From assembly GCF_051903065.1 (NCBI RefSeq), contig NZ_CP178438.1: a stretch of DNA of 64,000 nucleotides; one strand, 5' to 3'. Of this stretch, positions 1,387-64,000 are shown one piece after another. Each line of letters opens with the position of its first letter. The stretch's first letter is position 1. A program made the position numbers and the translations under genes. A model generated the notes under the pieces. The model worked only from the letters and a program-made list of their open reading frames with translations, ran no database searches and was not told where the DNA came from. This DNA is from Escherichia coli. GTDB lineage: Bacteria; Pseudomonadota; Gammaproteobacteria; Enterobacterales; Enterobacteriaceae.

Positions 1387-2353
1387 TGATGGGATAAAGA
1401 TCTTTGCGCTTATACGGCTGGATTTCGCCCGGTTTGCGAGTTTTCAGCAATTTTAGTATCCAGGTGTATTGTTCTGGTCGCGGACCAACAAAAATCTCGA
1501 CTTCTTCATTCATCCGCCGCGCAATCGTATGATCATCCGCCTCTAACAGATCATCCATCGGTGGGCGCACCTGAATCATCAGACGATGCGTCTTGCCATC
1601 ATAAATCGGAAACAGCGGTACAACGCGCGCACGGCACACTTTCATCAAACGACCAATCGCGGGCAACGTCGCTTTATAGGTGGCAAAGAAATCCACAAAT
1701 TCGCTGTGCTCTGGGCCATGATCCTGATCGGGTAAATAATATCCCCAGTACCCCTGACGTACCGACTGGATGAATGGTTTAATACCGTCATTTCTCGCAT
1801 GCAGACGACCGCCAAAGCGACGACGCACCGTGTTCCAGACATAATCAAAAACCGGGTTGCCCTGATTATGGAACATCGCTGCCATTTTCTGCCCTTGCGA
1901 GGCCATCAGCATGGCAGGAATATCGACGGCCCAACCGTGCGGCACCAGAAAGATAACTTTCTCGTTATTACGCCGCATCTCTTCGATGATCTCCAGCCCT
2001 TGCCAGTCAACGCGCGGCTGAATTTTCTCCGGCCCGCGTATTGCCAACTCAGCCATCATTGCCATCGCTTGCGGCGCGGTGGCAAACATCTCATCAACAA
2101 TCGCTTCGCGTTCAGCTTCACTACGTTCTGGAAAGCAGAGCGACAGATTGATTAACGCACGACGGCGTGAGCTTTTTCCCAGTCGTCCGGCAAAACGTCC
2201 CAGCCGTGCCAGAATGGGATCACGGAACTTTGGCGGCGTTAAAGCGATACCCGCCATCGCTGCTACGCCCAGCCATGCTCCCCAGTAGCGCGGGTGGCGA
2301 AAGGATTTATCAAACTCAGGAATGTATTCGCTATTATTTTTTTTCGTTTCCAT
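1382..2353 (-). CDS. lpxM: lipid A biosynthesis myristoyltransferase
   Basis: 323-aa ORF matching LpxM/MsbB ([14 protein letters not shown]...). Confidence 0.95.
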
Positions 2354-2424
2354 GCTTTTCCAGTTTCGGATAAGGCAAAAATCAATCTGGTGATAGTGTA
2401 GCGGCGCAACTTGCCCCGCACCAA

Positions 2425-2456
2425 ATAAAAAAAGCCGGTACTGACTACGTACCGGC
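2425..2456 (-). terminator. rho-independent terminator downstream of mepM
   Basis: A-run then gccggtac/gtaccggc hairpin on plus strand, i.e. hairpin plus T-run on minus strand. Confidence 0.7.
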
Positions 2457-2472
2457 TGCGAATGGATGTTAA

Positions 2473-3795
2473 TTAATCAAACCGTAGCTGCGGCACAATC
2501 TCTTTGGCCTGCGCCAGGAATTCGCGACGATCGGAGCCGGTCAGCCCTTCGGTACGCGGCAGTTTTGCCGTCAGCGGGTTTACGGCCTGCTGGTTTATCC
2601 ATACTTCATAGTGCAGATGCGGCCCGGTTGAACGTCCGGTATTACCGGAAAGCGCGATACGGTCGCCACGTTTCACCTTCTGTCCCGGTTTCACCAGAAT
2701 CTTGCGCAAGTGCATATAACGCGTGGTGTAGCTGCGACCATGACGAATAGCCACATAATAACCTGCTGCGCCACTGCGTTTGGCAACCACCACTTCACCG
2801 TCACCCACTGAAAGCACTGGCGTACCCTGCGGCATGGCGAAATCAACACCTCTGTGTGGTGCAACGCGACCGGTCACCGGATTAGTACGACGCGGGTTAA
2901 AGTTAGACGAGATACGGAACTGTTTCGCCGTCGGGAATCGCAAGAATCCTTTCGCCAGACCAGTACCGTTACGATCGTAGAATTTGCCATCTTCAGCGCG
3001 GATAGCGTAATAATCTTTACCTTCTGAACGCAAACGTACGCCCAGCAGCTGGCTTTGCTCACGTTTACCATCAAGCATTTCTCGAGACATTAATACCGCA
3101 AATTCATCGCCTTTTTTCAGTTTGCGGAAATCCATTTGCCACTGCATGGCTTTAATCACTGCGCTCACTTCGGCGCTGGTTAAACCGGCGTTTCTGGCGC
3201 TGGCAACAAAGCTCCCCCCGACGGTACCTTTCAGCAGATTGTTAACCCACTCTCCTTGCTGCATTTCGCTGGTCATTTTAAAACCGTTAGCGGCAGTACG
3301 GTCATAGGTTCGGGTTTCACGACGAGACACTTCCCAGGTGAGGCGCTGCAGTTCGCCGTCCGCGGTTAATGTCCAGGAGAGTTGTTGACCGATTTTCAGG
3401 TTACGCAATTCTTTGTCGGCCGCAGCCAGTTGGGTGATATCACCCATATCAATACCATACTGATTGAGAATGCTGCTTAGCGTATCGCCAGTGGAAACAA
3501 CATATTCATGCACGCCCGCTTCACCGGCGATTTTGTCATCCAGTTCGTCCTGGGGAATGGCTTCATCTTCTTGTGCAGCTTGATCAATCGGCTCACTGGC
3601 TTCAGGCAAGAGCGAACGAATTTCGTTCTGTTCCAGCTCAATGGTTTTGACAATTGGCGTGGCATCGCGGTGATAAACATAGGGCCGCCAGACAGCGACG
3701 GCCAGAGTAAGAACGGTGAGCGACCCCAACATAACGCGGTGTGGTCGCGGTAAATTATTAAACGCCAGGGCGACAGAGCGGGCTATCTGTTGCAC
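2473..3795 (-). CDS. mepM: murein DD-endopeptidase MepM (LysM + M23 peptidase)
   Basis: 440-aa ORF matching YebA/MepM. Confidence 0.95.
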
Positions 3796-3810
3796 GTAAT
3801 CACTTCCTCA

Positions 3811-4743
3811 TTAATCTCCTTTCAGGCAGCTCGCATACTGGTTGGCTAATTGACTCAGGAATTCTGAATAGCTTGTTTTACCCAGTTTGATATTCGTCCC
3901 CAGGGGATCCAACGTTCCCATACGAACGGATGTCCCTCGTGCGACGCTCTCAACGACCGCTGGCCTGAACTGTGGCTCAGCAAAAACGCAGGTTGCTTTT
4001 TGCTCAACCAACTGTGTTCTTATTTCATGTAAACGCTGCGCGCCAGGTTGAATCTCAGGATTAACGGTAAAATGACCAAGCGGTGTCAGTCCGAACTGTT
4101 TTTCGAAATAGCCGTAAGCATCGTGAAAAACGAAATAACCTTTCCCCTTGAGCGGCGCGAGCTCGTTACCAACCTGCGTTTCGGTTGAGGCTAATTGTGC
4201 CTCAAAATCCTTCAGGTTGGCGTCAAGTTTGGCTCGACTTTGCGGCATAAGTTCCACTAATTTTCCATGGATTGCAACCGCTGTAGCCCGCGCTATCTCT
4301 GGGGAAAGCCAAAGATGCAGGTTGAAATCGCCGTGATGGTGATCTTCGTCACTTTTTTCCGCGTGGTCGTGATCATCATCATCGCCGTGAATACTTTTCA
4401 TCAGTAGCGGTTTCACATCTTCAAGCTGCGCAATCGTTACCTGCTTCGCTTCTGGTAATTTGCTTACCGGTTTTTGCATAAACGCTTCCATCTCCGGGCC
4501 AACCCAAACGACTAAGTCCGCGTTCTGTAAGCGTTTTACATCCGATGGACGCAGTGAATAATCATGTTCAGAGGCGCCATCAGGAAGTAATACCTCCGTC
4601 TCTGTTACCCCATCAGCAATAGCGGAAGCGATGAATCCAACAGGTTTAAGCGAAGCGACAACGGCGGCATCTGCGGCCTGTGTTGCACCTCCCCAGAGAG
4701 CGGCGGATAATGCTGCGAAAAGAAGCGTTTTTTTATGTAACAT
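3811..4743 (-). CDS. znuA: zinc ABC transporter periplasmic binding protein
   Basis: ORF track gives 352 aa; start trimmed to [14 protein letters not shown] (ATG at 4743..4741) for 310 aa; His/Asp-rich loop [19 protein letters not shown]. Confidence 0.93.
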
Positions 4744-16836: not shown

Positions 16837-19266
16837 TTATGCCTGAACAGCTGGCTGATCAAACGCCGTTAACTTCGGTGCGTTACCCGTATATTTTTCG
16901 ATATACACCAGCGCAGAGTTACCGGCACAGGCATTTGCCAGCTGCGAGCTGGGGATATCCGCCGTTAACACGTTCGCACTGCCGTTTTTACACAAGCCAT
17001 TTTCCAGATCTGGCCATGCACCTTCATGCACGCATACCACGCCTTTTTTGATCCCGTCAGTCACCACAGCGCCTGTCAGGATCTGACCGCGTTTGTTCCA
17101 GACTCGCACCAGATCACCATTCGCAATACCAAAGCGGGCAGCATCTTCGGTGTGAATAGTGATTGGTTCACGATCGGCAACCGAATATTTTTTACGCAGT
17201 TCCGCATAGTTAAGCTGACTGTGTAAACGATGTGCCGGATGTGCGGTCAGAAGCTGCAACTGCTTCTCGTCGGCGGTACCTTTCCACTCATCAGGCGCAA
17301 GCCAGGTCGGGTGTGCCGGGCAATCCTTATAGCCAAATTTCTCCAGCGTTTTTGAGTAGATTTCAATTTTGCCACTTGGTGTACCCAGCGCATTTTTCAC
17401 CGGATCTGCGCGGAAATCGCCATAGCGAACGAACTGCTCATTCTTCTCGCTGCGGCGCATTTCAAGCAATTTATTTTGCTGCCAGAAGGCATTAAACATC
17501 GGCATGGTGACGCGTTGCGCACGCGCACCTTTCTGAGCGGCATCATAGAAAAATTTCAGCCACGCCATTTCATCTCTACCTTCGGTATAGATCTCTTTTC
17601 CGCCTGGTTTCAGTAATTCCGCAAGTTCGGCAAACACGTCAAAATCGTTTCGCGCTTCAAATTGCGGAGCGACAGCCTGCTTCATCGGCACAATATGCTG
17701 GTTGCTGTAATCACCGGTCATCGTCAAGTCATTGCGCTCAAACGATGTGGTGATCGGTAATACGATATCTGCATGTTTAGCAGCTGCGGTCCAGTAGCAT
17801 TCAGAAACGACGATCATCTCCGGTTTCTGCCATGCTTTGATCAGACGATTAGTATCCTGGTGATGGGTAAAGTTACCGCCACCCGCCCACCAGATCATTT
17901 TGATATTCGGATACGTTTGTTCTTTACCGTTATGCTGATATTTGCCACCAGGATTTTCCAGCGCATCGACGATACGGGCAACAGGAATCGCCGTCATTCC
18001 GCCATCATCAGCGGCCTCGCTGGCCTGTCCGGCAATCGCCGCAGACATTTCCGGCAGCACGCCGCCAACACGCGTCGGGTTGCCACCATTGGAGTAATGA
18101 TAAGAGAAACCAAAACCGCCGCCCGGTGTACCAATCTGCCCTAACATCGCCGCCAGCGTCACCAGCATCCAGTGTTTCTGTTCACCATATTGCTGGCGCT
18201 GAATTCCCCAGCCTGCCATCAGCATTGTGCGATTCGCCGCCATCAGTTCTGCGAGTTTGACTATCTGCGCTTCCGGTACGCCAGTAATTTCCGCCGCCCA
18301 GGCCGCACTCTTCGGAGTATTATCGCTCTTACCTGTCAGATATTCTTCAAACTGCGGATACCCGGTGGTGTATTTTTCAAGGAACACTTTATCGTGTTTG
18401 CCTTGTGTCATCAGGGTATGCGCAATCCCTAACATCAGTGCCACGTCGGTGCCCATATTCGGCGCGATCCAGGTGACATTATCGCCAAAGAACTCGATGG
18501 TTTCGGAGCGGATAGGATCAATGGCAATCACTGGTTTGCCAGATTTTTTCAGCTGATGGAAGTATTCCAGCCCTTGCTCATCGGTACTGCTCCAGGCAAT
18601 TTTTAAGGTATTCAGCGGGTTCATTCCCCACAGCACCACAACCTGGCTGTTTTCCAGAATCAGCGGCCAGGAGGTCTGCTGTTCATACACCTCTACAGAA
18701 CCGACCACATGCGGCATGATCACCTGTGCTGCCCCGGTTGAATAATCGCCGCTATGCCCGGAATAACCGCCCGCCAGGTTCATATAACGTTGCAGTAAGG
18801 TTTGCGCTTTATGCAACACGCCAGAAGAGCGCCAGCCGTAAGATCCGGCAAAAATGGCCGATGGTCCGTTAGCTTTACGAATACGCTCATGTTGCTCATG
18901 AATCAGTTTTAATGCCTGTTCCCAGCTCACCTGTACATAGGTATCTTCGCCACGACCTTTCGCCGGTTGCAGTGGATTGTCGAGATAGCTTTTTCTCACC
19001 ATCGGATGCTGAATACGCGCCGTGGTGTGTACCTGATCCGCCGCCGTAGACTGTAAGGAGTTCGGTATGGTTTTCGCCAGCGCGCCTGTCGAAGAAACAA
19101 TCTTGCCGTCCTTCACTTCTACGTTCATCGCTCCCCAACGTCCCGCGGTGAGGATTTTACCGCCCTTCTCTTCTGCCCATGCGGGTAGCGGTGTAGCCGA
19201 TGTCACCACCAGCGCCCCAGCGGCAATACTGCTGTGTTTAATAAATTCACGTCTTGTTAATGTCAT
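16837..19266 (-). CDS. torZ: trimethylamine N-oxide reductase 2 catalytic subunit (molybdoenzyme)
   Basis: Tat signal [10 protein letters not shown]...; ATG at 19266..19264 after gggagg RBS; 809 aa. Confidence 0.93.
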
Positions 19267-51160: not shown

Positions 51161-52372
51161 GTGAAAAACAGAACCCTGGGAAGTGTTTTTATCGTGGCGG
51201 GAACCACAATTGGCGCAGGCATGCTGGCAATGCCGCTGGCTGCGGCAGGTGTTGGTTTTAGCGTCACGTTAATCTTGTTGATTGGGCTTTGGGCGTTGAT
51301 GTGCTACACGGCGCTATTACTGCTGGAGGTGTACCAGCATGTTCCGGCAGATACCGGCCTGGGCACGCTGGCAAAACGCTATCTGGGACGCTACGGTCAG
51401 TGGCTGACGGGCTTCAGTATGATGTTCTTAATGTATGCTCTGACTGCGGCATACATCAGCGGTGCTGGTGAATTGTTGGCTTCCAGCATCAGCGACTGGA
51501 CAGGTATTTCAATGTCGGCAACCGCTGGCGTGCTGTTGTTCACTTTTGTTGCCGGTGGCGTGGTTTGTGTCGGGACATCGCTGGTCGATTTATTTAACCG
51601 TTTTCTGTTCAGCGCCAAAATTATTTTTCTGGTGGTAATGCTGGTACTACTGCTACCGCATATTCACAAAGTGAATCTTTTAACCCTGCCGTTGCAACAG
51701 GGGCTGGCACTGTCTGCAATCCCGGTGATTTTTACGTCGTTTGGTTTTCACGGTAGTGTGCCGAGTATTGTCAGCTATATGGATGGCAACATTCGTAAGC
51801 TACGCTGGGTGTTTATAACCGGTAGTGCGATCCCCCTGGTGGCATATATTTTCTGGCAGGTGGCGACGCTTGGCAGCATTGATTCAACAACCTTTATGGG
51901 ATTGCTGGCTAATCATGCCGGATTAAACGGGCTGCTACAGGCGTTACGCGAAATGGTGGCCTCTCCGCATGTTGAACTGGCGGTGCATTTATTTGCTGAT
52001 TTAGCCCTCGCCACGTCATTTCTCGGCGTTGCGTTAGGCTTATTTGATTATCTGGCTGATTTGTTTCAGCGTTCAAATACCGTTGGTGGAAGATTGCAAA
52101 CGGGTGCAATTACCTTTCTGCCGCCGTTGGCGTTTGCACTGTTTTATCCACGAGGATTTGTGATGGCGCTGGGTTACGCCGGTGTGGCGCTGGCGGTACT
52201 GGCATTGATTATCCCTTCACTATTGACCTGGCAAAGCAGAAAGCACAATCCTCAGGCGGGTTACCGGGTCAAAGGTGGTCGTCCGGCGCTGGTGGTGGTG
52301 TTTCTCTGTGGTATTGCTGTGATTGGCGTGCAATTTTTGATTGCGGCAGGGTTGTTACCAGAAGTGGGGTGA
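51161..52372 (+). CDS. tyrP: tyrosine-specific permease
   Basis: 403-aa ORF with GTG start ([14 protein letters not shown]). Confidence 0.95.
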
Positions 52373-52433
52373 TTAGATAGCCTCAAATTCCTTATTGGGT
52401 GCCAGAATTAACGCTGACACCCAATTTGACTTC

Positions 52434-53099
52434 TTAATGCAGGCAGCACTGCTTAAATTTCTTACCACTACCGCACGGGCAAGGATCGTTACGCCCCGGT
52501 TTCTCTTCTGCTATGATCGGTTGCTGAACAGCTTTTTCCTGCGGATGCGCCATCCAGTATGCATGTAAATCAAGCGCCGCCAGTCGAATGGCATCTACGC
52601 TCTCTTCAAACGCTTCTGGCGACATCTTCTCTACCCGCTCGAAGTTTTCCTGAGTACCGTGCAGCGCTATCGCCTCCAGCGCTGGTTTTAACGAATCGGG
52701 CAATGTTGACCAGTCAGAAAGTGCCACGCCCCGCATATAGCCAAAGCACCACTCCTCAACAATCGTCAGCTCGCTGCCATCAACTTCTCGCAAGCCGAAT
52801 AACGGCTCAAACTGCTCCGGGAATTCGTTCAGACGCTCTGCGGTATCGGCCATATGTTGAAAAGCCAGGTTCATAAAGCGCGTCATCTCTTTCTCTGACG
52901 CCCAGCGCGGCACATAGTCAGCCCCACCCCACACGGCAACCAGCCACTGTGCCGGTTCAATCTCTTGCGGAGAACTCAACACCGCCGTCAATAAACCGTC
53001 CAGCTCCGCCACATCAAGGATGGCGTGGTCAGTGTTGTATTTGGTCAGAATATCGTCCAGCCATTCCAACTCACTTTCGTTTAACGGTCCCGTTTTCAT
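52434..53099 (-). CDS. yecA: YecA (UPF0149, C-terminal SEC-C metal-binding motif)
   Basis: 221-aa ORF ending [15 protein letters not shown]. Confidence 0.93.
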
Positions 53100-53227
53100 A
53101 CGCTTTTCCTTGTGGATCTCAACTCGCCAGCACCTATCTTACATGCCGGTCCGTATCAGAGATACTTTTTGAGTGGCTTTGCCGGTGATTAAAAATCAAG
53201 GAGGGTGTAACGACAAGTTGCAGGCAC

Positions 53228-53250
53228 AAAAAAACCACCCGAAGGTGGTT
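53228..53250 (-). terminator. rho-independent terminator (tRNA-operon terminator homologue), repeat copy 1
   Basis: minus strand ccacc-ttcg-ggtgg hairpin + T7. Confidence 0.75.
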
Positions 53251-53294
53251 TCACGACACTGCTTATTGCTTTGATTTTATTCTTATCTTTCCCA

Positions 53295-53350
53295 TGGTAC
53301 CCGGAGCGGGACTTGAACCCGCACAGCGCGAACGCCGAGGGATTTTAAAT
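53295..53350 (-). other. 3' fragment (56 nt) of tRNA-Leu(UAA), att-site remnant
   Basis: revcomp ATTTAAAATCCCTCGGCGTTCGCGCTGTGCGGGTTCAAGTCCCGCTCCGGGTACCA = 3' part of leuZ from anticodon loop to CCA; 5' half absent. Confidence 0.85.
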
Positions 53351-53529
53351 TCTACGCAGGATCAATGAGTTACATAGCAGTGCATTGCGAAACTTTGCTG
53401 TAATTGTTTACTCATTTTACTGTAATTGGCAGTAAATAGATAGACTTGGATAACTTTGAGCACAGAATCTGCACAGGTAAGTCCCCTCTCACGGAGGCCT
53501 ACCTGTGCTATATCTATATGACTGCAAAG

Positions 53530-54171
53530 TTACGAGTTTGACTGGAAATCTTCAATTATCTTCTGATTGTAATCATCCAGATACTTTTGCAGTTCATCCC
53601 TGTCGATCAGACGTACCAAGGCTGATTCAGCTAACTCTTTCGCAGAGCGAGTGAGTAGGAATTAGTCACAACCATCGCCTCATCACAACCATAGAATGTT
53701 TTAGCAGAGATCACCTGCTGCACCGCCGAGTTACCTACAGAACCAGAATAATTTTTCGCCTGAATAACCATATCCTTACCAAATCGAGTGACGAAGAGAT
53801 CTGCCCCCTGATCTTGCGTTCTCTTGGTTTCTTTGACGTCATAGCCCATAGTCTGGAATACTTCCACAAGGAAATCTTCAAACTGGAAACCGTCCATTGC
53901 ATCAACTAAATACATGGTGACGAATTTGTTAGGGTTAAAATGTTCGAGCCGTGTAGCTAATCTATCAACCAGAATATCAAAATAAATATGTTCGCACACA
54001 GCTAAGTATTTTTTAACTTCATCAAATGAAACTAAAGGAACACCAGGCGTAGCCTCCACTTTTTCATTGAACTCTACTGATGAGAACTCTATTTTATTGC
54101 TCCATATATAGAATAGAAACAATGAAAGATCTGCCCTAAAAGTGGTACCCGCTTCCTCAATCCATGACTTC
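53530..54171 (-). pseudogene. Mrr-like (PD-(D/E)xK) restriction endonuclease pseudogene: 5' truncated by IS1, frameshift near 3' end
   Basis: ORF 53631..54185 has Mrr_cat-like ...GADLFVTRFGKDMVIQAKNYSGSVGNSAVQQV...; its apparent TTG start lies inside the IS1 end; -1 frame past the stop reads AKELAESALVRLIDRDELQKYLDDYNQKIIEDFQSNS. Confidence 0.7.
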
Positions 54172-54226
54172 GGTGATGCTGCCAACTTACTGATTTAGTG
54201 TATGATGGTGTTTTTGAGGTGCTCCA

Positions 54227-54502
54227 GTGGCTTCTGTTTCTATCAGCTGTCCCTCCTGTTCAGCTACTGACGGGGTGGTGCGTAACGGCAAAAGCACCGC
54301 CGGACATCAGCGCTATCTCTGCTCTCACTGCCGTAAAACATGGCAACTGCAGTTCACTTACACCGCTTCTCAACCCGGTACGCACCAGAAAATCATTGAT
54401 ATGGCCATGAATGGCGTTGGATGCCGGGCAACAGCCCGCATTATGGGCGTTGGCCTCAACACGATTTTACGTCACTTAAAAAACTCAGGCCGCAGTCGGT
54501 AA
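54227..54502 (+). CDS. insA: IS1 InsA
   Basis: 91-aa [25 protein letters not shown]... Confidence 0.95.
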
Positions 54503-54924
54503 CCTCGCGCATACAGCCGGGCAGTGACGTCATCGTCTGCGCGGAAATGGACGAACAGTGGGGCTATGTCGGGGCTAAATCGCGCCAGCGCTGGCTGTTT
54601 TACGCGTATGACAGGCTCCGGAAGACGGTTGTTGCGCACGTATTCGGTGAACGCACTATGGCGACGCTGGGGCGTCTTATGAGCCTGCTGTCACCCTTTG
54701 ACGTGGTGATATGGATGACGGATGGCTGGCCGCTGTATGAATCCCGCCTGAAGGGAAAGCTGCACGTAATCAGCAAGCGATATACGCAGCGAATTGAGCG
54801 GCATAACCTGAATCTGAGGCAGCACCTGGCACGGCTGGGACGGAAGTCGCTGTCGTTCTCAAAATCGGTGGAGCTGCATGACAAAGTCATCGGGCATTAT
54901 CTGAACATAAAACACTATCAATAA
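54421..54924 (+). CDS. insB: IS1 InsB (expressed as InsAB' by -1 frameshift at A6C, 54476..54484)
   Basis: 167-aa [19 protein letters not shown]...; slippery TTAAAAAAC present. Confidence 0.93.
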
Positions 54925-55001
54925 GTTGGAGTCATTACCGCCGCTTCACGCAATATCATTTCAGGCTGGCCCGGGAGCTTAATATTCCTCCCCAGGCAAT
55001 C

Positions 55002-55364
55002 GTGTATGCCAATCTACTGGCGTGGGATTACGACGGACTGACCCCTCTCAATCGCCCTCAAAATGAAGTGCAGGAAGTTATATTAGCCTCGCTGAAGCTG
55101 CTGGCGGTACAAATTAAACACCTTGAGCCTGATTTCATCATCTTTGCATCTGGAGCCCGGAGAACAGACTACATCATAAAACAGGTGCTTACTGAGCTGG
55201 GCGGCTATGAGACTTCTGCAGTCATTCCGGGGAAGCTATGGGAGTTCAAAACAGGTAATGCAATCTGTTTCAGAATTGCCCATCCAAGGGCTATGCGCGG
55301 ACACAAGAAGTACAGAGATGAGGTGATTGCACGAATTAAGCAACTTTGTACTCAGGGTGGCTAG
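55002..55364 (+). CDS. hypothetical protein, possibly 5'-truncated gene remnant
   Basis: 120-aa ORF from GTG; frame stays open back to the IS1 junction (54942), so likely a C-terminal fragment. Confidence 0.4.
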   Translation: MYANLLAWDYDGLTPLNRPQNEVQEVILASLKLLAVQIKHLEPDFIIFASGARRTDYIIKQVLTELGGYETSAVIPGKLWEFKTGNAICFRIAHPRAMRGHKKYRDEVIARIKQLCTQGG

Positions 55365-55541
55365 AGCATTACAGTTTGCTCAGCAGGCCCCCCCTTCCCG
55401 GAAGAGTACCGGAAAACAGGCAAAGCGGCCTGGTTCTCTATGCTGGAGGCGACACGTTCAATTCGGCATTGCCAGGCTGTAGATTGCAGCTCATTGCACC
55501 CCGTGAGCACAGGATATGCACAGGGCGTGAATTGCATGCAC

Positions 55542-55567
55542 AAAAAAACCACCCGGAGGTGGTTTCA
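55542..55567 (-). terminator. rho-independent terminator, repeat copy 2
   Basis: A7 + ccaccc-gga-ggtgg hairpin, homologous to 53228..53250. Confidence 0.7.
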
Positions 55568-55606
55568 CGACACTGCTTATTGCTTTGATTATTCTGATGT
55601 TTCCCA

Positions 55607-55662
55607 TGGTACCCGGAGTGGGACTTGAACCCACACAGCGCGAACGCCGAGGGATTTTAAAT
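55607..55662 (-). other. second 3' fragment of tRNA-Leu(UAA), diverged
   Basis: same 56-nt fragment with two substitutions (gagTggg / cccAcac) that stay base-paired in the T-stem. Confidence 0.85.
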
Positions 55663-55938
55663 TCTACGTAGGATCAATGAGTTACATAGCAGTGCATTGC
55701 GAAACTTTGCTGACGTTGAATGGTCGTCTTTGCAACCACTGGCAGAAAATGGATAGCCGTAGATTGCGTTGAGCACAGAAACAGCACAGGGTAATCGTCT
55801 ACCTGGTCCTGTAAAGGAGGTTGTTGCCACACAAGCTAAAGCGCTTGACCTGCCCCCAGTATTCGGTACAACTGTCAGTTAGTAATGGACTGACCCCACC
55901 CCGGTAGACGATCCTGCCCTATAGTTACCTTTAACTAA

Positions 55939-58900
55939 TTATGCCAATTCAGACTCAAACGCTGCATCATTCGCTTCAGCCTCTGCGCCATCAATTAATG
56001 CCAAGACTCGGTCAAGAAAGCGTTGCGCTTCGTATACATCTGTTGCTTGCCGCAGATAATGAGGTATTCGTTCAACAAACTCGGAACGTGATAAAGGCTG
56101 ATGTTCCAGCAAAGCCTCAAGCATTGCGGGCCGCAACAAACGACGATCAGCATCAACATTAGGAAGCTCAACCTCAATGACATGTGTGGCAAAATACTTA
56201 AGTTGCTCCTTAAGCCCCAAATTGGGCATAAGAGAATCAATTGAGTCAGACGCCACTTCAGCGCTTGACTCAATCGTTTCTACATATTCATAGGAAGGTA
56301 CAACAACGTCTGGAGCCAATGTTTTAAGCTCATGGAGTTTACGGATAATCGGAGATAGAACCTCATCAGGATTACTGAACCAATCAGTGGACCAAATGCG
56401 GCTAATTCTCCAACCCAAACGCTCCAGAACCTCTTGACGCAAACGGTCACGATCACGAGCAGATTTAGCTGAGTGATAAGCCGCACCATCACACTCTATG
56501 CCCATTAAGTAACGGCCAGGACAACCTGGATCTTTCACAGCTAGATCAATAAAGAATCCTGCAACCCCTACCTGAGGTTCACACTCAAACCCAGCGTGAT
56601 TGAGTGCTTCCATTACAGCAACCTCAAAGTCACTATCTGGAGCCCTGCCGGTATGCGTTGTGAGGGAATCTAGTTTGCCACTTTCGGCAAACTGTAAAAA
56701 ACCTTTCAACGAAATAACACCAAGTTTACTGATTTCACTCGTCAATACATCTTCAGAACGCATTGAACTAAACACATGCATCCGTTTTTTTGATCGAGTG
56801 AAAAGCACATTCAAGCGACGCCAGCCAACATCGGAATTGATAGGTCCAAAGCGTTGATAAACCTTTCCACCATGCTCAGAAGGTCCATAGGTAAAGGAAA
56901 TAAAGATTACATCACGCTCATCCCCTTGAACGTTCTCAAGGTTTTTCACAAAAAGTGGCTCTTCCATGGCATATAAGCCATCGATTGCATCGTTAAATTC
57001 AGGGCGATTTCGGCGCAATTCATCGATAGCGCGCTCAATTTGATCGCGTTGCTTGGAACTCATGGCCACTACCCCGAGTGACTCACCCGGCCGGTGTTGC
57101 GCATGATGAAGTACGGCCTCAGCAACTGCTTGGGCTTCTTCAATATTGTGTTGATTGGAGAACCGACCTTTTGACACATAGGTAAATTTAATCCCATACT
57201 CTGGAGACTCAGCATTTGGGGAAGGGAATATCACCAAATCACTGTTATAAAAATGGCGGTTAGAGTATGCAATCAACTTTTCATGTCGTGAACGATAGTG
57301 CCAACGCAAACGTCTCATAGGAAACAGTGGCAAAGCAGCATCCAAAATGCTGTCAGTATCACTTAAAGCCGCGGCATCATCGTCATCTTCTCCGTCGGCA
57401 CTTCGATCAAAGAAACTGGTTGGTGGTAGCTGTTTCGGGTCACCAACGACCACTAGTTGCTTGCCCCTCGCGATGACACCCAATGCATCCTCTGGCTTCA
57501 CCTGAGACGCTTCGTCCATCACCACCAGATCAAATTCCATTCGTCCAGGTTCTAGGTAATGAGCTGCTGACATTGGCCCCATCATGAAACAAGGTTTAAT
57601 TGCAACCAGCGCATTACATGCACGGTTAACCAATTGCCTAATTGGAATATGTCTGGTTTTTTTACCCAACTCATTTTTGATCAAAGCTAGTTCTGTATAT
57701 TCACTTTTCTTACCACCAGAATTCCCTTCTGGTATATTTCGGCAAGCAATTTTTGCTGCAATCCGCTGACGTTGTAATTCAATCAGTTTTTTATCGTAAT
57801 CTTTAAATGACTTCTGCAAAGCATTGCGCTGTGAGCCGGAAACTCTCATCAATTCAGGGTGGATGTGAATAACCTCCCGCGCCAGCTGGTCATGAATTGC
57901 TAATGCTAAACCCAATTCAACTTTTTCAATCGGGAGCGAGCCCGCAAGTACAGCACTCCAGATTCGCTGCAATCCATTTTCATGCATCTGCTCGTAACAA
58001 CGAATAAAGTTAACCCACCCGTTCAACCAACGGGGTTGCTGTATTGCTCTTTCGTTGCGCTCGATTAATGTATTAAGAGAACCATCAGTCGACTTGAGCC
58101 ACTGACTCCGCTCTAACTTTGTTTCTAGCGCATATAACTCAGCATTTTTAATCTGTTCATTCCATTTCGAAACTATTTCCCCACCATCACGACATAGTAA
58201 ATCGTAATCACTACCACTAGCCAAATGTCTGATCTGGGTAGCCAAGGATACGCAATTTATCTTATCAACCAGTTGCTCGGCAAAATTCAGCGTGTCGTTA
58301 ATAGTGTCTAACGTCAGTTGATTATTTTTATACGCACCGCAAGCCAATGGGGTTAATTGTAAAAACGCCCCTAACTGTAACGAGTCATTTTCAAGGGATA
58401 TCTGAAGATCGTTTATGTTTTGCAAAATCTCGGAGGAATGAGTCATCTGCTCTAATGATATATCTGGATTGATAAACCATCCCTGCAAGGCAATGAGAGT
58501 ATTCCGCACCTGTCGGTAAGATTGCATCAATACACCTTGCTCACCTAACCAAGATGCATGTTCTTCCAACAAGCTAGAAATACGCGGTAATAACTTAGCC
58601 TCGTGCTCGACCCGTTTAACCAAAGTCATTAATCTTGAGCTAATCTGCGATTTCTCGATTAAATGCACACCTTTGATAATCTCACCATCTAGGTTAAATA
58701 ATCCAGAGCCTATCGCAACTCGCTTTCCAAAACCTATCCCGTAACAAGCTCGGACCTTCTTGTACCAATCACGCAATAACATGAGTTGTTCACAGTCGGT
58801 GTCCAACCCTCGGAATGCATTACCAAGTTGATTACCAAAGTCACTTTGTTCAAACCGTTGTAACAGCTCCGAATACTTGAGCAAATCAGCTGAGCAGCGT

Positions 58901-61686
58901 TTTAACTCAGCAAACTTAGTGTCAGGCTTACGAGATTGCGCCATGAGCAGTGCCTTGGCACTACGCCAATCACTCTTAAACCATGCAAATAATCCCCCTT
59001 GCTGGATAACAGCAACGGCATGCGCGAGCATCTCTTGGGAAGGCAACTGGTCCAATTGATACAAAGTAGATAGACCATCTCTTAAAGGACGCAATGTTTC
59101 GATTTGACACATTAAGTCGCGCAATACTGCATCGATATCATCATCATCAAAAAGAGGATCTCGAACTCTAATAAGCTCAGTCGGTAAAGCACCCAGAATC
59201 GACAACAACTCAGAGCAGAATAGCAATCCAGCTTGCGAATCATCGATATACGAAGCAATACCATCTGGCAAAGCATTTTTGAAATCGTTTAATTGCGCAT
59301 AAATAGATGATAACTCATCATGAATTGATTGGATGGATTCAAGCCACCTGACCAAATCACGTAAAGTGAAATCCTCTGCTGCACCATATTTTTCCAGCTC
59401 TTCACGAGGAAAGTCACACGATTGTCCTTGTTCTAAAAGTCGTAGCTTTTGAGGCTCGATAACCTGGCTCAAGGCCACATAATGACCTTGTAGCAACTCG
59501 AACCTATCTAAATAGTGACGCACCCGTGCAATGGCATCGGGTGAATCTAGCTCACTAAGTGCTGGGAAATGCTCTGAACCACACAACACTGGAAGATTCG
59601 ACTGATCTTCTACCAATTGCTCAATATATTGAAGCGTATTAAGGCTTTCGCCTTCTAACGCCCACTTATCTACATATTCTTGATAGCTATGTTGAAAGTC
59701 GATAATTGATGTCTGCCAAGTTTGTAGCAAATCGACTATACGAGCGCTGTCAAACAATTGAATTTGTGTGTTATTCACACCGCTCCAAGGGTGCTCATAT
59801 ATTTCTGCATTAGCCCCCACCTGCTCACGAACCTCTTTGTAGATGCGGCTAAACTCTACTATTTGGTCACGCAGCCGTAATTGGGTCACTTTATCCAACT
59901 GCTTCCCGGAAAGGTTTTCGATATGAAGTGCTGTTGCATCAATATCTAATTTGTGACGATAACGGGTTGCACCACTCAAAATCTGATGGATCGTTTTGCC
60001 TGTTTGCGCCCATTGGTTATTGATCAATGCGGCATATTCATTGAGCTGCTGCTTAAGATCTTCATAACGCAAAATCTGAGCATCAATCTCTTCCATAGTA
60101 GGCATGGTCGCCTGACTCACCAAGCGAGCATTAATATCATCCAGCACCTTGCGCTTATGAGTTTTATGACTGTGCAACTCTAAGCAAAATTGACCTAGCC
60201 CCGCACGATCCAAGCGACGTTTGACGACCTCCAGTGCAGCCATCTTCTCTGCCACAAACAGGACTTTCTTACCGTTGAGCAGAGCTGCTGCAATCAAGTT
60301 GGTGATCGTTTGTGATTTGCCACTACCAGGAGGGCCCTCAATGACTAAGTTTTGACCACGGATAGCATCGATCAACGCACTGTGCTGCGAGCTATCCGCA
60401 TCATCGATTAGTGGAACCTTGTCATGAATATCAGGGTAACTATCGATGCAGTACTCATGCTGACCGAAGCCACCAGGTAAGCCGGAATTCTCTTGACCAC
60501 AGCTCTGACTGGTGAAAAAGCGACGAATTACTTCATGAGACAATATATTGCGCTTGTCACAAGGCCAGCGGGCAGGATCGAGGTCAAGATACATCATCAT
60601 CTTGCCAAAATTGAGCAAGCTAAGTGCACCATAACGTTTCACAGACCATTTAGGTTTGTGCTGCTCTACAACCTTCTTCACCGAAGCAAAATAAGACTCT
60701 GGAGTTTCCTCTTCATTGAACAAAGGAAGAGCGAGGCCAAAGTCAGCCTGAAGTTTTTCCTTCAAAGAGAGATTGGGCAAAATATCTTCACCCGTGTAAT
60801 AAAGTTGAAACTTGTAAAGACCATCCTTCGGATCTAATTTTCCTCGTTCACATCTCACCGGAATTGTAAATAACGGTGCATAACGTGCCTTTTCAGAGGA
60901 ATCGCTTTCATACCACTCAAGGAACCCTAACGCCAAATACAAGATGTTGGCGCCACTCTCCTCCAAAGCAGTTTGAGCCTTACCATAGATGGCGCGCAAA
61001 CAAGCTTCCAGTTCATTTGGATAAAGCAGAGCCTGTATCCGATTATCGTCATGAGAGGGATTGGAAGAAGATATACTAATCTCATTCCCAGCCTTTGCCT
61101 GTCGTTCAAAATCCTCAAGCCCTTCATAGCCTGCTAAGCAGCACGCCTCCTTCAACGCTGACAAAGCTATACCTTGATTAACGTATTCAGAACGAATCCC
61201 TGTTAATTTTCCATTCTGGCCTTGGGCATATTGCAAGATAAACTGATGGGCTTTTTCCAGCAACTCTCTATCTGAATCAGAAACAACCGTTTTATGGCTA
61301 TCTGGTAAATCAAAATCTGTACGGATTCCTAAGACGTGCGCCCAATCCTTAGCGCTAGGATGAGCTCTTAACTGTATATCTTTACCATCTGGCCCAACTT
61401 TGAGATAGCCATGCTCTAACAGCTGCGCTCTAGTTGGATCGGGCACAGGAGCAAATTCCATCGGGATTTCCGAGCAAAGGGTTTCATAAAGCTGTTCTGG
61501 TAATTCATCAACAATACGTAGTGAAGACCCTTTTTGAGTGATAGGGAAATTCAAAAGTCGATTTCGAGACGTAAGGTCCAATAACTTCTTACGCATAGCC
61601 TCGAGGGAAGTCAGAATAAAATCTGAGCCTCCTTGATTGAGTTCCTCTGCTGTAGAGGTATCTACAGTCGACATAATGTTCTCCAT
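55939..61686 (-). CDS. giant helicase-nuclease (1915 aa): DUF4011-like N-terminus, Upf1-like SF1 helicase with ~940-aa insertion, C-terminal Vsr/DUF559-like nuclease domain
   Basis: LLDLTSRNRLLNF and LALGFLEWYE near N-terminus; Walker A GPPGSGKS (res 451-458, nt 60313..60336); DEAS (res 1391-1394, nt 57505..57516); VVVGDPKQLPP; GDERDVIFIS; GWRRLNVLFTRSKKRMHVF; C-terminal FFIDLA...IECDGAAYHSAKSARDRDRLRQEVLERLGWRISRIW (nt about 56377..56628). Confidence 0.85.
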   Translation of the reverse strand: MENIMSTVDTSTAEELNQGGSDFILTSLEAMRKKLLDLTSRNRLLNFPITQKGSSLRIVDELPEQLYETLCSEIPMEFAPVPDPTRAQLLEHGYLKVGPDGKDIQLRAHPSAKDWAHVLGIRTDFDLPDSHKTVVSDSDRELLEKAHQFILQYAQGQNGKLTGIRSEYVNQGIALSALKEACCLAGYEGLEDFERQAKAGNEISISSSNPSHDDNRIQALLYPNELEACLRAIYGKAQTALEESGANILYLALGFLEWYESDSSEKARYAPLFTIPVRCERGKLDPKDGLYKFQLYYTGEDILPNLSLKEKLQADFGLALPLFNEEETPESYFASVKKVVEQHKPKWSVKRYGALSLLNFGKMMMYLDLDPARWPCDKRNILSHEVIRRFFTSQSCGQENSGLPGGFGQHEYCIDSYPDIHDKVPLIDDADSSQHSALIDAIRGQNLVIEGPPGSGKSQTITNLIAAALLNGKKVLFVAEKMAALEVVKRRLDRAGLGQFCLELHSHKTHKRKVLDDINARLVSQATMPTMEEIDAQILRYEDLKQQLNEYAALINNQWAQTGKTIHQILSGATRYRHKLDIDATALHIENLSGKQLDKVTQLRLRDQIVEFSRIYKEVREQVGANAEIYEHPWSGVNNTQIQLFDSARIVDLLQTWQTSIIDFQHSYQEYVDKWALEGESLNTLQYIEQLVEDQSNLPVLCGSEHFPALSELDSPDAIARVRHYLDRFELLQGHYVALSQVIEPQKLRLLEQGQSCDFPREELEKYGAAEDFTLRDLVRWLESIQSIHDELSSIYAQLNDFKNALPDGIASYIDDSQAGLLFCSELLSILGALPTELIRVRDPLFDDDDIDAVLRDLMCQIETLRPLRDGLSTLYQLDQLPSQEMLAHAVAVIQQGGLFAWFKSDWRSAKALLMAQSRKPDTKFAELKRCSADLLKYSELLQRFEQSDFGNQLGNAFRGLDTDCEQLMLLRDWYKKVRACYGIGFGKRVAIGSGLFNLDGEIIKGVHLIEKSQISSRLMTLVKRVEHEAKLLPRISSLLEEHASWLGEQGVLMQSYRQVRNTLIALQGWFINPDISLEQMTHSSEILQNINDLQISLENDSLQLGAFLQLTPLACGAYKNNQLTLDTINDTLNFAEQLVDKINCVSLATQIRHLASGSDYDLLCRDGGEIVSKWNEQIKNAELYALETKLERSQWLKSTDGSLNTLIERNERAIQQPRWLNGWVNFIRCYEQMHENGLQRIWSAVLAGSLPIEKVELGLALAIHDQLAREVIHIHPELMRVSGSQRNALQKSFKDYDKKLIELQRQRIAAKIACRNIPEGNSGGKKSEYTELALIKNELGKKTRHIPIRQLVNRACNALVAIKPCFMMGPMSAAHYLEPGRMEFDLVVMDEASQVKPEDALGVIARGKQLVVVGDPKQLPPTSFFDRSADGEDDDDAAALSDTDSILDAALPLFPMRRLRWHYRSRHEKLIAYSNRHFYNSDLVIFPSPNAESPEYGIKFTYVSKGRFSNQHNIEEAQAVAEAVLHHAQHRPGESLGVVAMSSKQRDQIERAIDELRRNRPEFNDAIDGLYAMEEPLFVKNLENVQGDERDVIFISFTYGPSEHGGKVYQRFGPINSDVGWRRLNVLFTRSKKRMHVFSSMRSEDVLTSEISKLGVISLKGFLQFAESGKLDSLTTHTGRAPDSDFEVAVMEALNHAGFECEPQVGVAGFFIDLAVKDPGCPGRYLMGIECDGAAYHSAKSARDRDRLRQEVLERLGWRISRIWSTDWFSNPDEVLSPIIRKLHELKTLAPDVVVPSYEYVETIESSAEVASDSIDSLMPNLGLKEQLKYFATHVIEVELPNVDADRRLLRPAMLEALLEHQPLSRSEFVERIPHYLRQATDVYEAQRFLDRVLALIDGAEAEANDAAFESELA

Positions 61687-61860
61687 TTCTTAGGGTCCAC
61701 AAGTAAAACGTTTTATGCTGATGCATCACAAAAAGACCGCAGTAAACTGCTGCAAAGAAGAGGAGATTTTTAGTCTCCCCTTCTTTATCAATCAGATCAT
61801 ACAATCAACTTAACGCCCATTAGTTGATAGCAGCCAAATTTCATAAACAGATTCAATCCG

Positions 61861-63903
61861 TTATTGCTGAATTTGATTGGATAGTAAGACCTGCAACATA
61901 TCTTGTTGATGCACAGCTATCTCATCTTCCAGCCAACGACCTTTATCTTTCATCAGCCGAATCATAGCAAGCAATTTAAGACTATCAGTCTGGTTATTGG
62001 CAAGGCTTGCTTCAAAGTGCTCCTGCTTCTGTTGCGGCTGGAAGTTACTCAAGCGCGAGTTCTTGCTGTGGCTGATAAGGCAAAGGTTGCCAAACGAATG
62101 GAGTGCACTCTGCTCAACCGGTTTATAGCCATCCATCGGATGCTGGGGTGAGAAGTGCTCCACCGAGCTGCGGAAAGTGAACTCAAAGGAGCCAGCAACT
62201 TTGTCGCTATTCCGATCTCGTACCCACAGCAGATAGTCGAGGAAGTTGAAGACAAAGTTGTTCTCGATATGACCGAAGCGAAGTTTGGATGTAATCACCT
62301 TGTGCCAACTCTCATCCACATTGATGGCGGGCAACAGGGCGTTATCAAGGTAGAGCATCTGGTAATAGGAAGCCCCTTCACCAGGCGCCAAAAAGCGCTG
62401 GAAGACAAAGCGGCGAGCCTGACTCTCCAGATAGGACAGATAAGCCCCGGCATCCACCGGTTGATCAGGGTGACAATTGTCGAACAGATATCTCAGTGCA
62501 CCATTCAGCCAATGTTTGTAAACCAGGGTCGGGGTCGACACATGAAACGCCGACAGCAACATCAGGACCCGCCGGTTAACACCAGAGAAACCATTCTCAT
62601 TTTCATCCTTGTCAAAGGTATTGATGTAACTGACGCTCTTTTCCGAATACCAGTGCAGCCGCTTCAGACTCCAACTATCCTTGCCATCGGCAAACTCGCG
62701 CTTGATGATGAACTGATCAAACAGATACTTGCTCTTTAACAGGCCATAGATAAAACGCTGAACTGCCGCTACTGGATCCGGTTGCCTTATCACTCGCAGC
62801 TCAAACTGATCGACCAGTTGTTTATCATCAAGCGGCACCCCCTCCGTATCACCCGGGTCGCGGCTCACGAGTCGCAGCACATGGAGCAAGAAGTTGGAGA
62901 AGTTGATGACGCTGTTAAAGCGCTCGGAGCCTGCGCTCTCCTCCTCCACCGTCTGCTCACCATCAAGCTTGTCATCCTGCAAAATGGCCAACAAGGTGCG
63001 CCCTTGGCTACCGGCAGCTGCACGGCTTTTATCGGCAGCGTCGGCCGTGTTTGGGGATCCTAGCAGATCAAGCAGATGGGCAAAGTCACGGGGCACAAAC
63101 TGACCCCAGTCGCTCTCACCAAACAGACGGTGGCGCTCTTGCGGGGTAAAGCCGTACTGGATATAGCGCTCCATATTGGCGCAGGCATCCCATACCCGGG
63201 TCAGGATATGAATACTTTGGCGACGATGCTCTTCCTCGGGTATCTGGTTCAGCGTCTCCATCAGCCGCGCCTTGATCACTTCATGCTTTTCCAACTGCTC
63301 GCCGCGATTGTTCATCGCCTCGAAGAAGTGATTGAGATCGGTATCCTTGGGTACTTCGATACGAGAGATCTGCACATGCTTGAAGAGGTAGTCGCAAAAG
63401 GTCGTCAGTTTAGCCCCTACCAAACCAAGATCCGCCATTGCCTTGCCAATCAGCTCAAAACCGTTCACCAAACCTTCATTGAAGGTACTCCCCCGCAAAT
63501 CGTAGGGGGCAACACCCTGCCATAAGCGCTCGAAGGTATGGCTCGATATCGGGCGACTCTCAAAAGCGAGGTTGATGGTCTGATACCAGCTCATATCCAC
63601 CGAATCTATCGCGTGATGTTTGAGCCAATTGGCCAGCAGAGAGAGGGTAGTAAAGCGCTGCTGGCCATCGATTACCTCGAAACTGCCATCGTCCCGGGCA
63701 AACACCACCAGGGTGCCGATATAGTAGGTTTGCGGCCCCTTACCACTGACCAATTTTTGCTGATAATCCAGCACATCCTGCAGCAGCTGGGTGATCTCTC
63801 CCTCACCCCAGGCATAGTTGCGCTGGTACATGGGCACCAGATAGCGGGCGCGATCTTCAAGCAGTGCACGAATGGAAAAGGGGCGAACGCCTGCATCATT
63901 CAT
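61861..63903 (-). CDS. DUF262 (ParB-like NTPase/nuclease) + DUF1524 (His-Me finger) protein, GmrSD-like putative type IV restriction enzyme
   Basis: N-terminal [16 protein letters not shown] and [12 protein letters not shown] (res 79-83); C-terminal [12 protein letters not shown]...[18 protein letters not shown]. Confidence 0.85.
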
Positions 63904-64000
63904 AATATTTCATCTCCCGAAACAGCCCGACCAGCTCATCTTCGGCACCATTGCGATTGTTCTTGTTCTCTCGACTGCTCATGCTAGGCAAAGGGAAGCC
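63896..64000 (-). CDS. 3' end of an upstream ORF running off the window (partial)
   Basis: minus-strand frame open from 64000 to TGA at 63898..63896 (...[28 protein letters not shown]); ATGAATGA overlap with the DUF262 start. Confidence 0.4.

Follow-up and report, generated by a model that had tools for sequence, protein, structure and literature searches.

The junction between a TgvAB-type gene pair and the Hhe defence gene on an Escherichia coli chromosome

The spacer that separates a pair of DUF262 genes from a long helicase-nuclease gene on an E. coli chromosome is an ordinary junction between two already known defence modules, TgvAB and Hhe, which are well supported as two autonomous systems, not one. 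The reading that we favour, and consider reasonably probable, is that this seam carries a decayed terminator followed by a strong ribosome-binding site, and that hhe mRNA arises mostly by read-through from upstream. The practical value of the analysis lies in annotation: the start codon of hhe is corrected, the DUF262 pair is identified as TgvAB-type, and TgvAB and Hhe are recognised as separable cargo of type I restriction-modification clusters. Coordinates refer to the window, that is, the whole 64,000-nucleotide stretch of DNA that was analysed, and are collected in Table 1.

Table 1. Positions of genes, signals and structures in and around the tgvB-hhe junction
Feature	Position	Strand	Remarks
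tgvA-like gene, 3' end	63896..64000	-	DUF262 + DUF7834; 483 aa in full; runs off the window
tgvB-like gene, 680 aa	61861..63903	-	Stop TAA 61863..61861; N-terminal DUF262 (GmrSD_N), C-terminal DUF1524 His-Me nuclease (GmrSD_C)
Candidate sigma-70-like site, CTGATA, 16 nt, TGcTATGAT (extended -10)	61961..61988	-	Within the coding sequence of the tgvB-like gene; hhe ATG 286 nt downstream
Intergenic spacer, 186 bp	61675..61860	-	From the tgvB-like stop to the corrected hhe start
Inverted repeat ATCAACT-N11-AGTTGAT	61804..61828	-	With the adjacent GTATGAT, the most conserved block of the spacer
Invariant TATGAT (-10-like hexamer)	61796..61801	-	Poor -35 (CTAATG); PWM 6.2, about the 99.0th percentile, not significant
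Hairpin 1, AAAGAAGGGGAGA / loop CUAAAAA / UCUCCUCUUCUUU	61754..61786	-	Followed by UUCUUU; putative decayed intrinsic-terminator hairpin
Hairpin 2, UUGCAGCAG-UUUA-CUGCGG + UCUUUUU run	61730..61755	-	Sole minus-strand terminator-like match of the scan
Shine-Dalgarno GGAG	61681..61684	-	6 nt upstream of ATG 61674; overlaps ATG 61686..61684
hhe, 1911 aa	55939..61674	-	DUF4011 + SF1 (Upf1-like) helicase + MTES_1575/Vsr-like nuclease
Strong terminator, CCACCUCCGGGUGG + U7	55534..55562	-	d=30.6, among the best six sites of the window

Identity of the flanking genes

The two genes that border the spacer, the tgvB-like gene and hhe, are both encoded on the minus strand of the chromosome. Pfam places GmrSD_N in both proteins of the DUF262 pair, whose genes are adjacent and co-oriented, and a DGQQR motif is found at residue 75 of the A protein and residue 79 of the B protein. 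GmrSD_C is present in the B protein only, at residues 555-671, with DUF7834 in the A protein instead; the B protein also gives PADLOC matches of the HEC-06/Orf5/SspE type. The first 60 residues of the pair proteins are those of the matches to Vibrio cholerae VC1767 (TgvA) and VC1766 (TgvB) in Table S5 of PMC11411939, a link made through these N-terminal residues and the Table S5 entries. In the published system, tgvA carries DUF262 only and tgvB carries DUF262 plus DUF1524, in the order hsdM-hsdS-tgvA-tgvB-hsdR (PMC11411939), and the pair described here resembles it in having two overlapping genes, an N-terminal DUF262 domain with DGQQR in both products, and DUF1524 in the second. The 8-nt overlap between the two genes, already noted in the original prediction, recurs in the complete genome of strain A65EC and in every relative examined. 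By domain content and sequence match, the formerly unnamed DUF262 pair is a TgvAB homologue of the GmrSD-like type IV restriction type.

The assignment of the helicase gene as hhe is equally direct at the level of sequence families. DUF4011 is matched by PF13195 at residues 34-312 of the long open reading frame (E=1.6e-37), the helicase core exceeds the cut-offs of PF13086 (AAA_11) and PF13087 (AAA_12), and the C-terminal nuclease is matched by PF18741 (E=4e-37) and also by PF04480. The PADLOC model is covered over positions 1-1911 of 1911 with 4303 bits, and the NCBIfam equivalog NF042953 (Hhe_antiphage) scores 2736 bits against a cut-off of 2000. The protein thus agrees with Hhe (Gao et al. 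2020; NF042953, PADLOC PDLC02194) in full length, in architecture and in its 1911 residues, with no difference at the protein level. What is added to knowledge of Hhe is its context, nested behind TgvAB or DarTG inside type I restriction-modification (R-M) clusters; PMC11411939 makes no mention of Hhe or DUF4011.

The wider gene order is seen in A65EC, a complete genome with an identical island. There hsdM, hsdS, two cargo genes, hsdR, an M48 peptidase gene and IS remnants come first, followed by the two DUF262 genes (483 aa, then 680 aa with the 8-nt overlap), hhe, yecA and tyrP. Of 5426 complete E. coli genomes, 274 contain a match to a 1-kb junction sequence at 99% identity or higher, and hhe is named by RefSeq in 274 of the same 5426; the co-occurrence of the modules is 271 against 274 genomes. 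The approximately 270 island copies in E. coli are at least 99% identical, with both modules in every copy, and are uninformative for variation.

Start codon and spacer length

Where does hhe begin? The long helicase reading frame opens with an ATG at 61686, with a second in-frame ATG at 61674, and it was from the first of these that a spacer of 174 bp (61687..61860) had been measured. That length is right from the tgvB-like stop to ATG 61686, but this ATG is not the start of hhe. RefSeq/PGAP places the start at the second ATG, giving 1911 residues; the PADLOC model has 1911 positions, and its alignment with the long reading frame spans residues 5-1915; Hhe homologues at 65-100% identity are 1909-1914 residues long; and the GGAG is kept at equal distance in relatives that lack the upstream ATG. 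Sequence comparison thus places the start at 61674, and the spacer is therefore 186 bp. The weak ribosome-binding site ascribed to hhe disappears with this correction, the strong GGAG lying 6 nt before 61674: the apparent weakness was an artefact of choosing the wrong ATG, the earlier AUG itself being part of AUGGAG.

Hairpins in the spacer

A short hairpin, ggagac-taaaaa-tctcc, had been recognised in the spacer, and it does exist, at 61778..61762, although it is merely the tip of a longer stem. The core stem of hairpin 1, GAAGGGGAGA/UCUCCUCUUC, comprises 10 bp at 61783..61757 with a predicted energy of -13.3 kcal/mol, and A/U pairs lengthen it to 13 bp (61786..61754). In E. coli the stem includes A-U and G-U pairs, the loop is of 7 nt and the U-tract is short and interrupted. 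Hairpin 2, which is followed by TCTTTTT, had been overlooked. One compensatory pair in hairpin 2 distinguishes E. coli from L002 (a related locus) and Aeromonas; its stem is broken in the metagenomic variant L106 and its U-run is absent in Aeromonas.

The significance of the folding depends on the background used. A 40-nt fold of the spacer at -18.6 kcal/mol was equalled in none of 300 dinucleotide shuffles of the spacer, and an equally stable fold occurred in 28 of 300 (9%) random 186-mers from the same, GC-richer window; the whole-spacer fold has z=-2.5 against shuffles. A scan of 55000..64000 against Rfam at E<=1 gave no match in the spacer.

Terminator strength was expressed as d, the d'Aubenton-Carafa function, with ViennaRNA energies and calibration on the window. 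On this scale the obvious gene-end terminators of the window score +15 to +43; d is 0 or greater at 14 sites in 128 kb, and about 95 window sites reach -25 or better. The E. coli hairpins score poorly, hairpin 1 at -24 and hairpin 2 at about -31 to -39. The homologous hairpin of Aeromonas veronii, GGGGGGC-UAAAC-GCCCCCC followed by UUCUUU, reaches +15. Pairs of the stem differ between the two organisms yet stay paired, GAAGGGGAGA/UCUCCUCUUC in E. coli against GAAGGGGGGC/GCCCCCCUUC in Aeromonas, and RNAalifold, applied to four spacer variants, keeps the helix with three pairs altered on both sides. As these four are the only distinct variants, the covariation is thin, and it is suggestive of a conserved stem.

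The structure shares with Rho-independent terminators and intercistronic attenuators its A-tract, its GC-containing stem and its U-rich tail. In score the Aeromonas orthologue resembles the bona fide terminators of the window; the E. coli copy, at d=-24, does not. For hairpin 1 the best reading is a terminator of canonical form in Aeromonas that has eroded in E. coli and is probably leaky there. The case for insulation is weakened because the E. coli hairpins score so poorly (-24 and -31), and partial insulation with read-through between the tgvB-like gene and hhe is at most what the evidence allows. The strong terminator at 55534..55562 is likely to mark the 3' end of the hhe transcript.

Origin of the junction

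In two Aeromonas loci, A. veronii L004 and L123, the order is hsdM-hsdS-tgvA-tgvB-hhe-hsdR, with 182 or 253 bp between tgvB and hhe and 17-18 nt between hhe and hsdR; ygjP follows hsdR in L004, and L123 ends within hsdR. Between E. coli and Aeromonas L004 the tgvAB DNA is about 96% identical (90% at fourfold sites), compared with about 80% for hhe (51% at fourfold sites), and the switch in identity, a recombination breakpoint, is located at about 62000..62030, some 150 nt ahead of the stop codon of the tgvB-like gene. This switch and the unequal divergence on its two sides indicate that the modules have been exchanged independently.

The spacer itself is 78.5% identical to both the Aeromonas (L004) and the L002 spacers. 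Its conservation exceeds the neutral level clearly in the comparison with Aeromonas but barely in that with L002, for which third positions are 73% identical, and from this uneven excess we take the constraint on the spacer to be local, not general. Across hhe loci as a whole the spacers take four unrelated forms, of 90, 120, 186 and 253 bp. A terminator-like hairpin is seen in the 186-bp form only; the other three forms have no terminator, and insulation is therefore not a conserved feature. When metagenomes were searched with the inverted repeat as a pattern, 33 loci matched, most of which (nearly all) had the E. coli sequence; only one new spacer variant (L106) emerged, with two loci disrupted by IS elements or deletion (L109 and L117).

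In A65EC about 185 nt of the 5' end of an hsdR gene, homologous to the Aeromonas hsdR, stand directly after hhe, and by this homology they are a relic of an ancestral hhe-hsdR linkage. The hsdR remnant is absent after hhe in the window strain, which at 55925/55926 lacks about 233 nt of A65EC (18377..18609 of that locus), including the stretch of about 185 nt.

The published TgvAB operons provide the closest comparison. The Aeromonas and Klebsiella relatives of the pair sit, like the V. cholerae pair, between hsdS and hsdR. The pair in the window differs in lying outside the R-M cluster, behind a complete type I R-M system and IS remnants, and in that hhe, with its own spacer, is inserted between tgvB and the former position of hsdR. 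Placement between hsdS and hsdR is typical and not obligatory, with 1,341 stand-alone operons counted against 79 embedded ones (PMC11411939).

The source of hhe transcripts

It had been proposed that the helicase-nuclease gene might be transcribed independently from the spacer. This was not borne out, neither of two scans finding a convincing sigma-70 promoter there. A consensus scan of the spacer gave no sigma-70-like site with at least 9 of 12 matches. The best score with a position weight matrix (PWM), built by us from approximate frequencies and calibrated on all window positions, was 6.9; this is the 99.3rd percentile, and about 1.3 such scores are expected by chance in 186 nt. In the 330 nt that precede the hhe start, the best site is the candidate at 61988..61961, upstream of both hairpins, with a PWM score of 11.8 (99.99th percentile of the window). 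Its motif is encoded by a conserved peptide, (I/T)DSLKLLAMI, and we rejected it as an hhe-specific promoter: the motif is found equally in homologues with no hhe downstream, and coding constraint explains it fully.

In the favoured reading, the ancestral arrangement would be that still intact in Aeromonas, with both modules nested in a type I R-M system as hsdM-hsdS-tgvA-tgvB-[spacer]-hhe-hsdR-ygjP. Hairpin 1, canonical as a terminator in Aeromonas and weakened in E. coli, would end or attenuate the upstream transcript, and the spacer would hold in addition the second weak hairpin with its U-run and the strong GGAG for the start at 61674. Most hhe mRNA in E. coli would then come from transcripts that are initiated ahead of the hairpins and continue through them, supplied by the tgvAB transcript, by the extended -10 promoter-like site at 61988..61961, or by both, and the outcome would be a lower, partly insulated expression of Hhe. 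A strong promoter inside the spacer is an unlikely source. That hhe depends on read-through and not on an internal start is something we infer from sequence features.

A plain polycistronic operon is possible, though we regard it as doubtful. The spacer would then be a scar of the insertion of hhe between tgvB and hsdR, hhe would be expressed solely by read-through from tgvAB, and the hairpins would have no role in transcription or would just stabilise the 3' end of a processed upstream mRNA. This agrees with the overlap of tgvB and hsdR, with no spacer, where hhe is absent, with the four unrelated hhe spacers of 90 to 253 bp, and with the weakness of the E. coli hairpins as terminators and of any promoter in the spacer. 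It fits poorly with the compensatory substitutions that have kept hairpin 1 and with its canonical form in Aeromonas. Moreover, clones that contain hhe as the sole gene, together with the DNA natively upstream of it, are reportedly active, and if that activity holds, there should be a promoter close to hhe.

Could the promoter instead be a regulated one within the spacer? The TATGAT at 61801..61796 would serve as the -10 element, with the inverted repeat at 61828..61804, over the -35 region, as the site of an activator or repressor; transcription would start near 61789, hairpin 1 would be a stabilising 5' stem-loop of the hhe mRNA, and hhe would be transcribed independently. The block concerned is the most conserved of the spacer, with about 30 of 35 positions invariant in the four variants, the hexamer matches at 5 of 6 positions, the DNA upstream is AT-rich, and the Aeromonas hsdR, lying behind a good terminator, needs some source of transcription. 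The -35 element is nevertheless very poor (CTAATG), a PWM score of 6.2 is expected by chance roughly once in 100 nt, no gene for a regulator is evident beside the locus, and the other three types of hhe spacer lack the block. We consider such a promoter unlikely.

The conservation of this block, ATCAACT-N11-AGTTGAT-nn-GTATGAT, is above expectation, and read-through past a decayed terminator, our preferred explanation, leaves it unaccounted for. The pairs of the inverted repeat are invariant across the four sequences, save L002, and are uninformative for covariation. It is improbable, in our judgement, that the inverted repeat, the TATGAT and the two hairpins together form a dedicated leader, a factor-controlled promoter and/or a conditional terminator that gates Hhe and, ancestrally, HsdR. 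If they did, defence cassettes stacked within a type I R-M operon would be separately switchable. A regulated leader would also be relevant to how cells hold toxic defence nucleases at a low level, and no result demands that reading.

A conditional attenuator seems to us quite improbable. An upstream promoter would feed a leader whose terminator hairpin or hairpins are read through only on a signal such as infection or stress, so that the toxic helicase-nuclease, and in the ancestral cluster HsdR, would stay at a low level until required. The order of promoter-like sites, conserved hairpins and gene is as such a device would have it, and the spacer folds better than its shuffles (z=-2.5). Against it stand the lack of an Rfam match, of an alternative antiterminator pairing with covariation and of a leader peptide with a Shine-Dalgarno sequence, and the restriction of the element to a few close relatives.

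Small open reading frames in the spacer were considered and rejected as genes: one of 15 codons is not conserved, one of 7 codons has no Shine-Dalgarno sequence, and indels exclude anything longer. The 7-codon frame (61797..61820, minus strand; ATG GGC GTT AAG TTG ATT GTA TGA) is uninterrupted in the spacers of E. coli, Aeromonas and L002.

On the opposite strand, a promoter-like sequence, TCGACA-17-TAGGGT (61668..61696, plus strand; 99.86th percentile), faces hairpin 1, with a score not above chance. Read on the plus strand (61762..61788), hairpin 1 is itself terminator-like, as GGAGATTTTTAGTCTCC followed by CCTTCTTTAT. The two elements could specify an antisense transcript, about 90 nt long, that covers the hhe leader.

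Two separable modules

Whether the two nucleases form one system or two had been tied to the transcription of the spacer. Two systems is the correct inference, on grounds other than a spacer promoter: domain and family assignments support it well, as do published work and comparisons among genomes. The V. cholerae genes tgvA and tgvB are mutually dependent (Vizzarro et al. 2024, PMC11411939), and TgvAB alone is sufficient to protect E. coli from T-even phages (PMC11411939). In the panel of Gao et al., hhe appears as a single-gene defence system.

Each module is also found without the other. TgvAB occurs without hhe in Aeromonas salmonicida, where it stands alone (L124), in Enterobacter, ahead of unrelated genes (L125 and L126), and in Klebsiella pneumoniae, in the order hsdM-hsdS-tgvA-tgvB-hsdR with tgvB overlapping hsdR by 4 nt and no spacer (L127 and L128). 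Conversely, hhe occurs without tgvAB, alone in an integrase island (L005) and behind DarT-DarG in a type I R-M cluster, hsdS-DarT-DarG-hhe-hsdR (L009). Among 80 distant Hhe loci none has a TgvA- or TgvB-like gene nearby, and hsdM is nearby in 8. About 400 Klebsiella IncF plasmids keep tgvAB intact with an identical spacer and an hhe cut by IS5, and in the metagenomic L106 the pair and spacer are present and hhe is deleted.

A composite system, in which TgvA, TgvB and Hhe act jointly and the spacer only tunes stoichiometry, would fit the strict co-occurrence in E. coli genomes and the retention of the trio in Aeromonas and in relatives from metagenomes whose Hhe is as little as 65% identical, but it is highly improbable given that each part is, in the accounts just cited, reported active alone, that each is found without the other, and that their divergence histories differ. 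The strict co-occurrence in E. coli fits clonal descent, although by itself it cannot exclude co-operation.

TgvAB and Hhe are separable cargo stacked in the hsdS-hsdR slot of type I R-M clusters, another case of defence genes inside defence operons. The prr locus, with PrrC between hsdS and hsdR, has the same arrangement. In EPEC, DarTG2 lies between hsdS and hsdR and is driven from one RptR-repressed promoter (PMC12255303). The present locus resembles this in having defence cargo in the hsdS-hsdR slot, and L009, with DarT-DarG-hhe, has it in the same slot; it differs in that two cargo modules are stacked here, with a terminator-like hairpin between them. No RptR operator (TAGCTA repeats) is present in the spacer, nor is an RptR gene evident there.

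Mobile elements and cargo around the junction

Several mobile-element events cluster at the junction. In L109 a 1.33-kb insertion follows spacer nt 34; in L117 the break lies 11 nt before the hhe ATG, at the hhe ribosome-binding site; and in the Klebsiella IncF plasmids mentioned above (about 400) IS5 lies in codon 70 of hhe (L129, 11187..12366). In the window, 54170..54547 matches, with 98.7% identity, the IS1-like remnant which A65EC carries upstream of the DUF262 pair; by this comparison the island is rearranged between the two strains.

About 390 nt downstream of the hhe stop (55534..55625, minus strand) there is a fragment like a tRNA 3' end, GGGTTCAAGTCCCACTCCGGGTACCA, followed by a terminator, CCACCTCCGGGTGG with T7 (d=30.6), and a near-duplicate, CCACCTTCGGGTGG with T7, lies at about 53234 (53220..53300, minus strand). 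ARAGORN found no intact tRNA in 52000..57000. The duplicated fragment and terminator look like att-type island ends.

More distant Hhe relatives, at 41-62% identity (L046, L017, L029, L061 and L009), lie in or right behind type I R-M clusters, in L046 in the order hsdM-hsdS-x-hhe-hsdR, and from these placements Hhe appears to be a recurrent cargo of the hsdS-hsdR slot. The type I R-M system of A65EC (1700..4190 of that locus) carries hsdS-hsdR cargo of its own, a YecA-family protein and a 620-aa cold-shock-domain protein.
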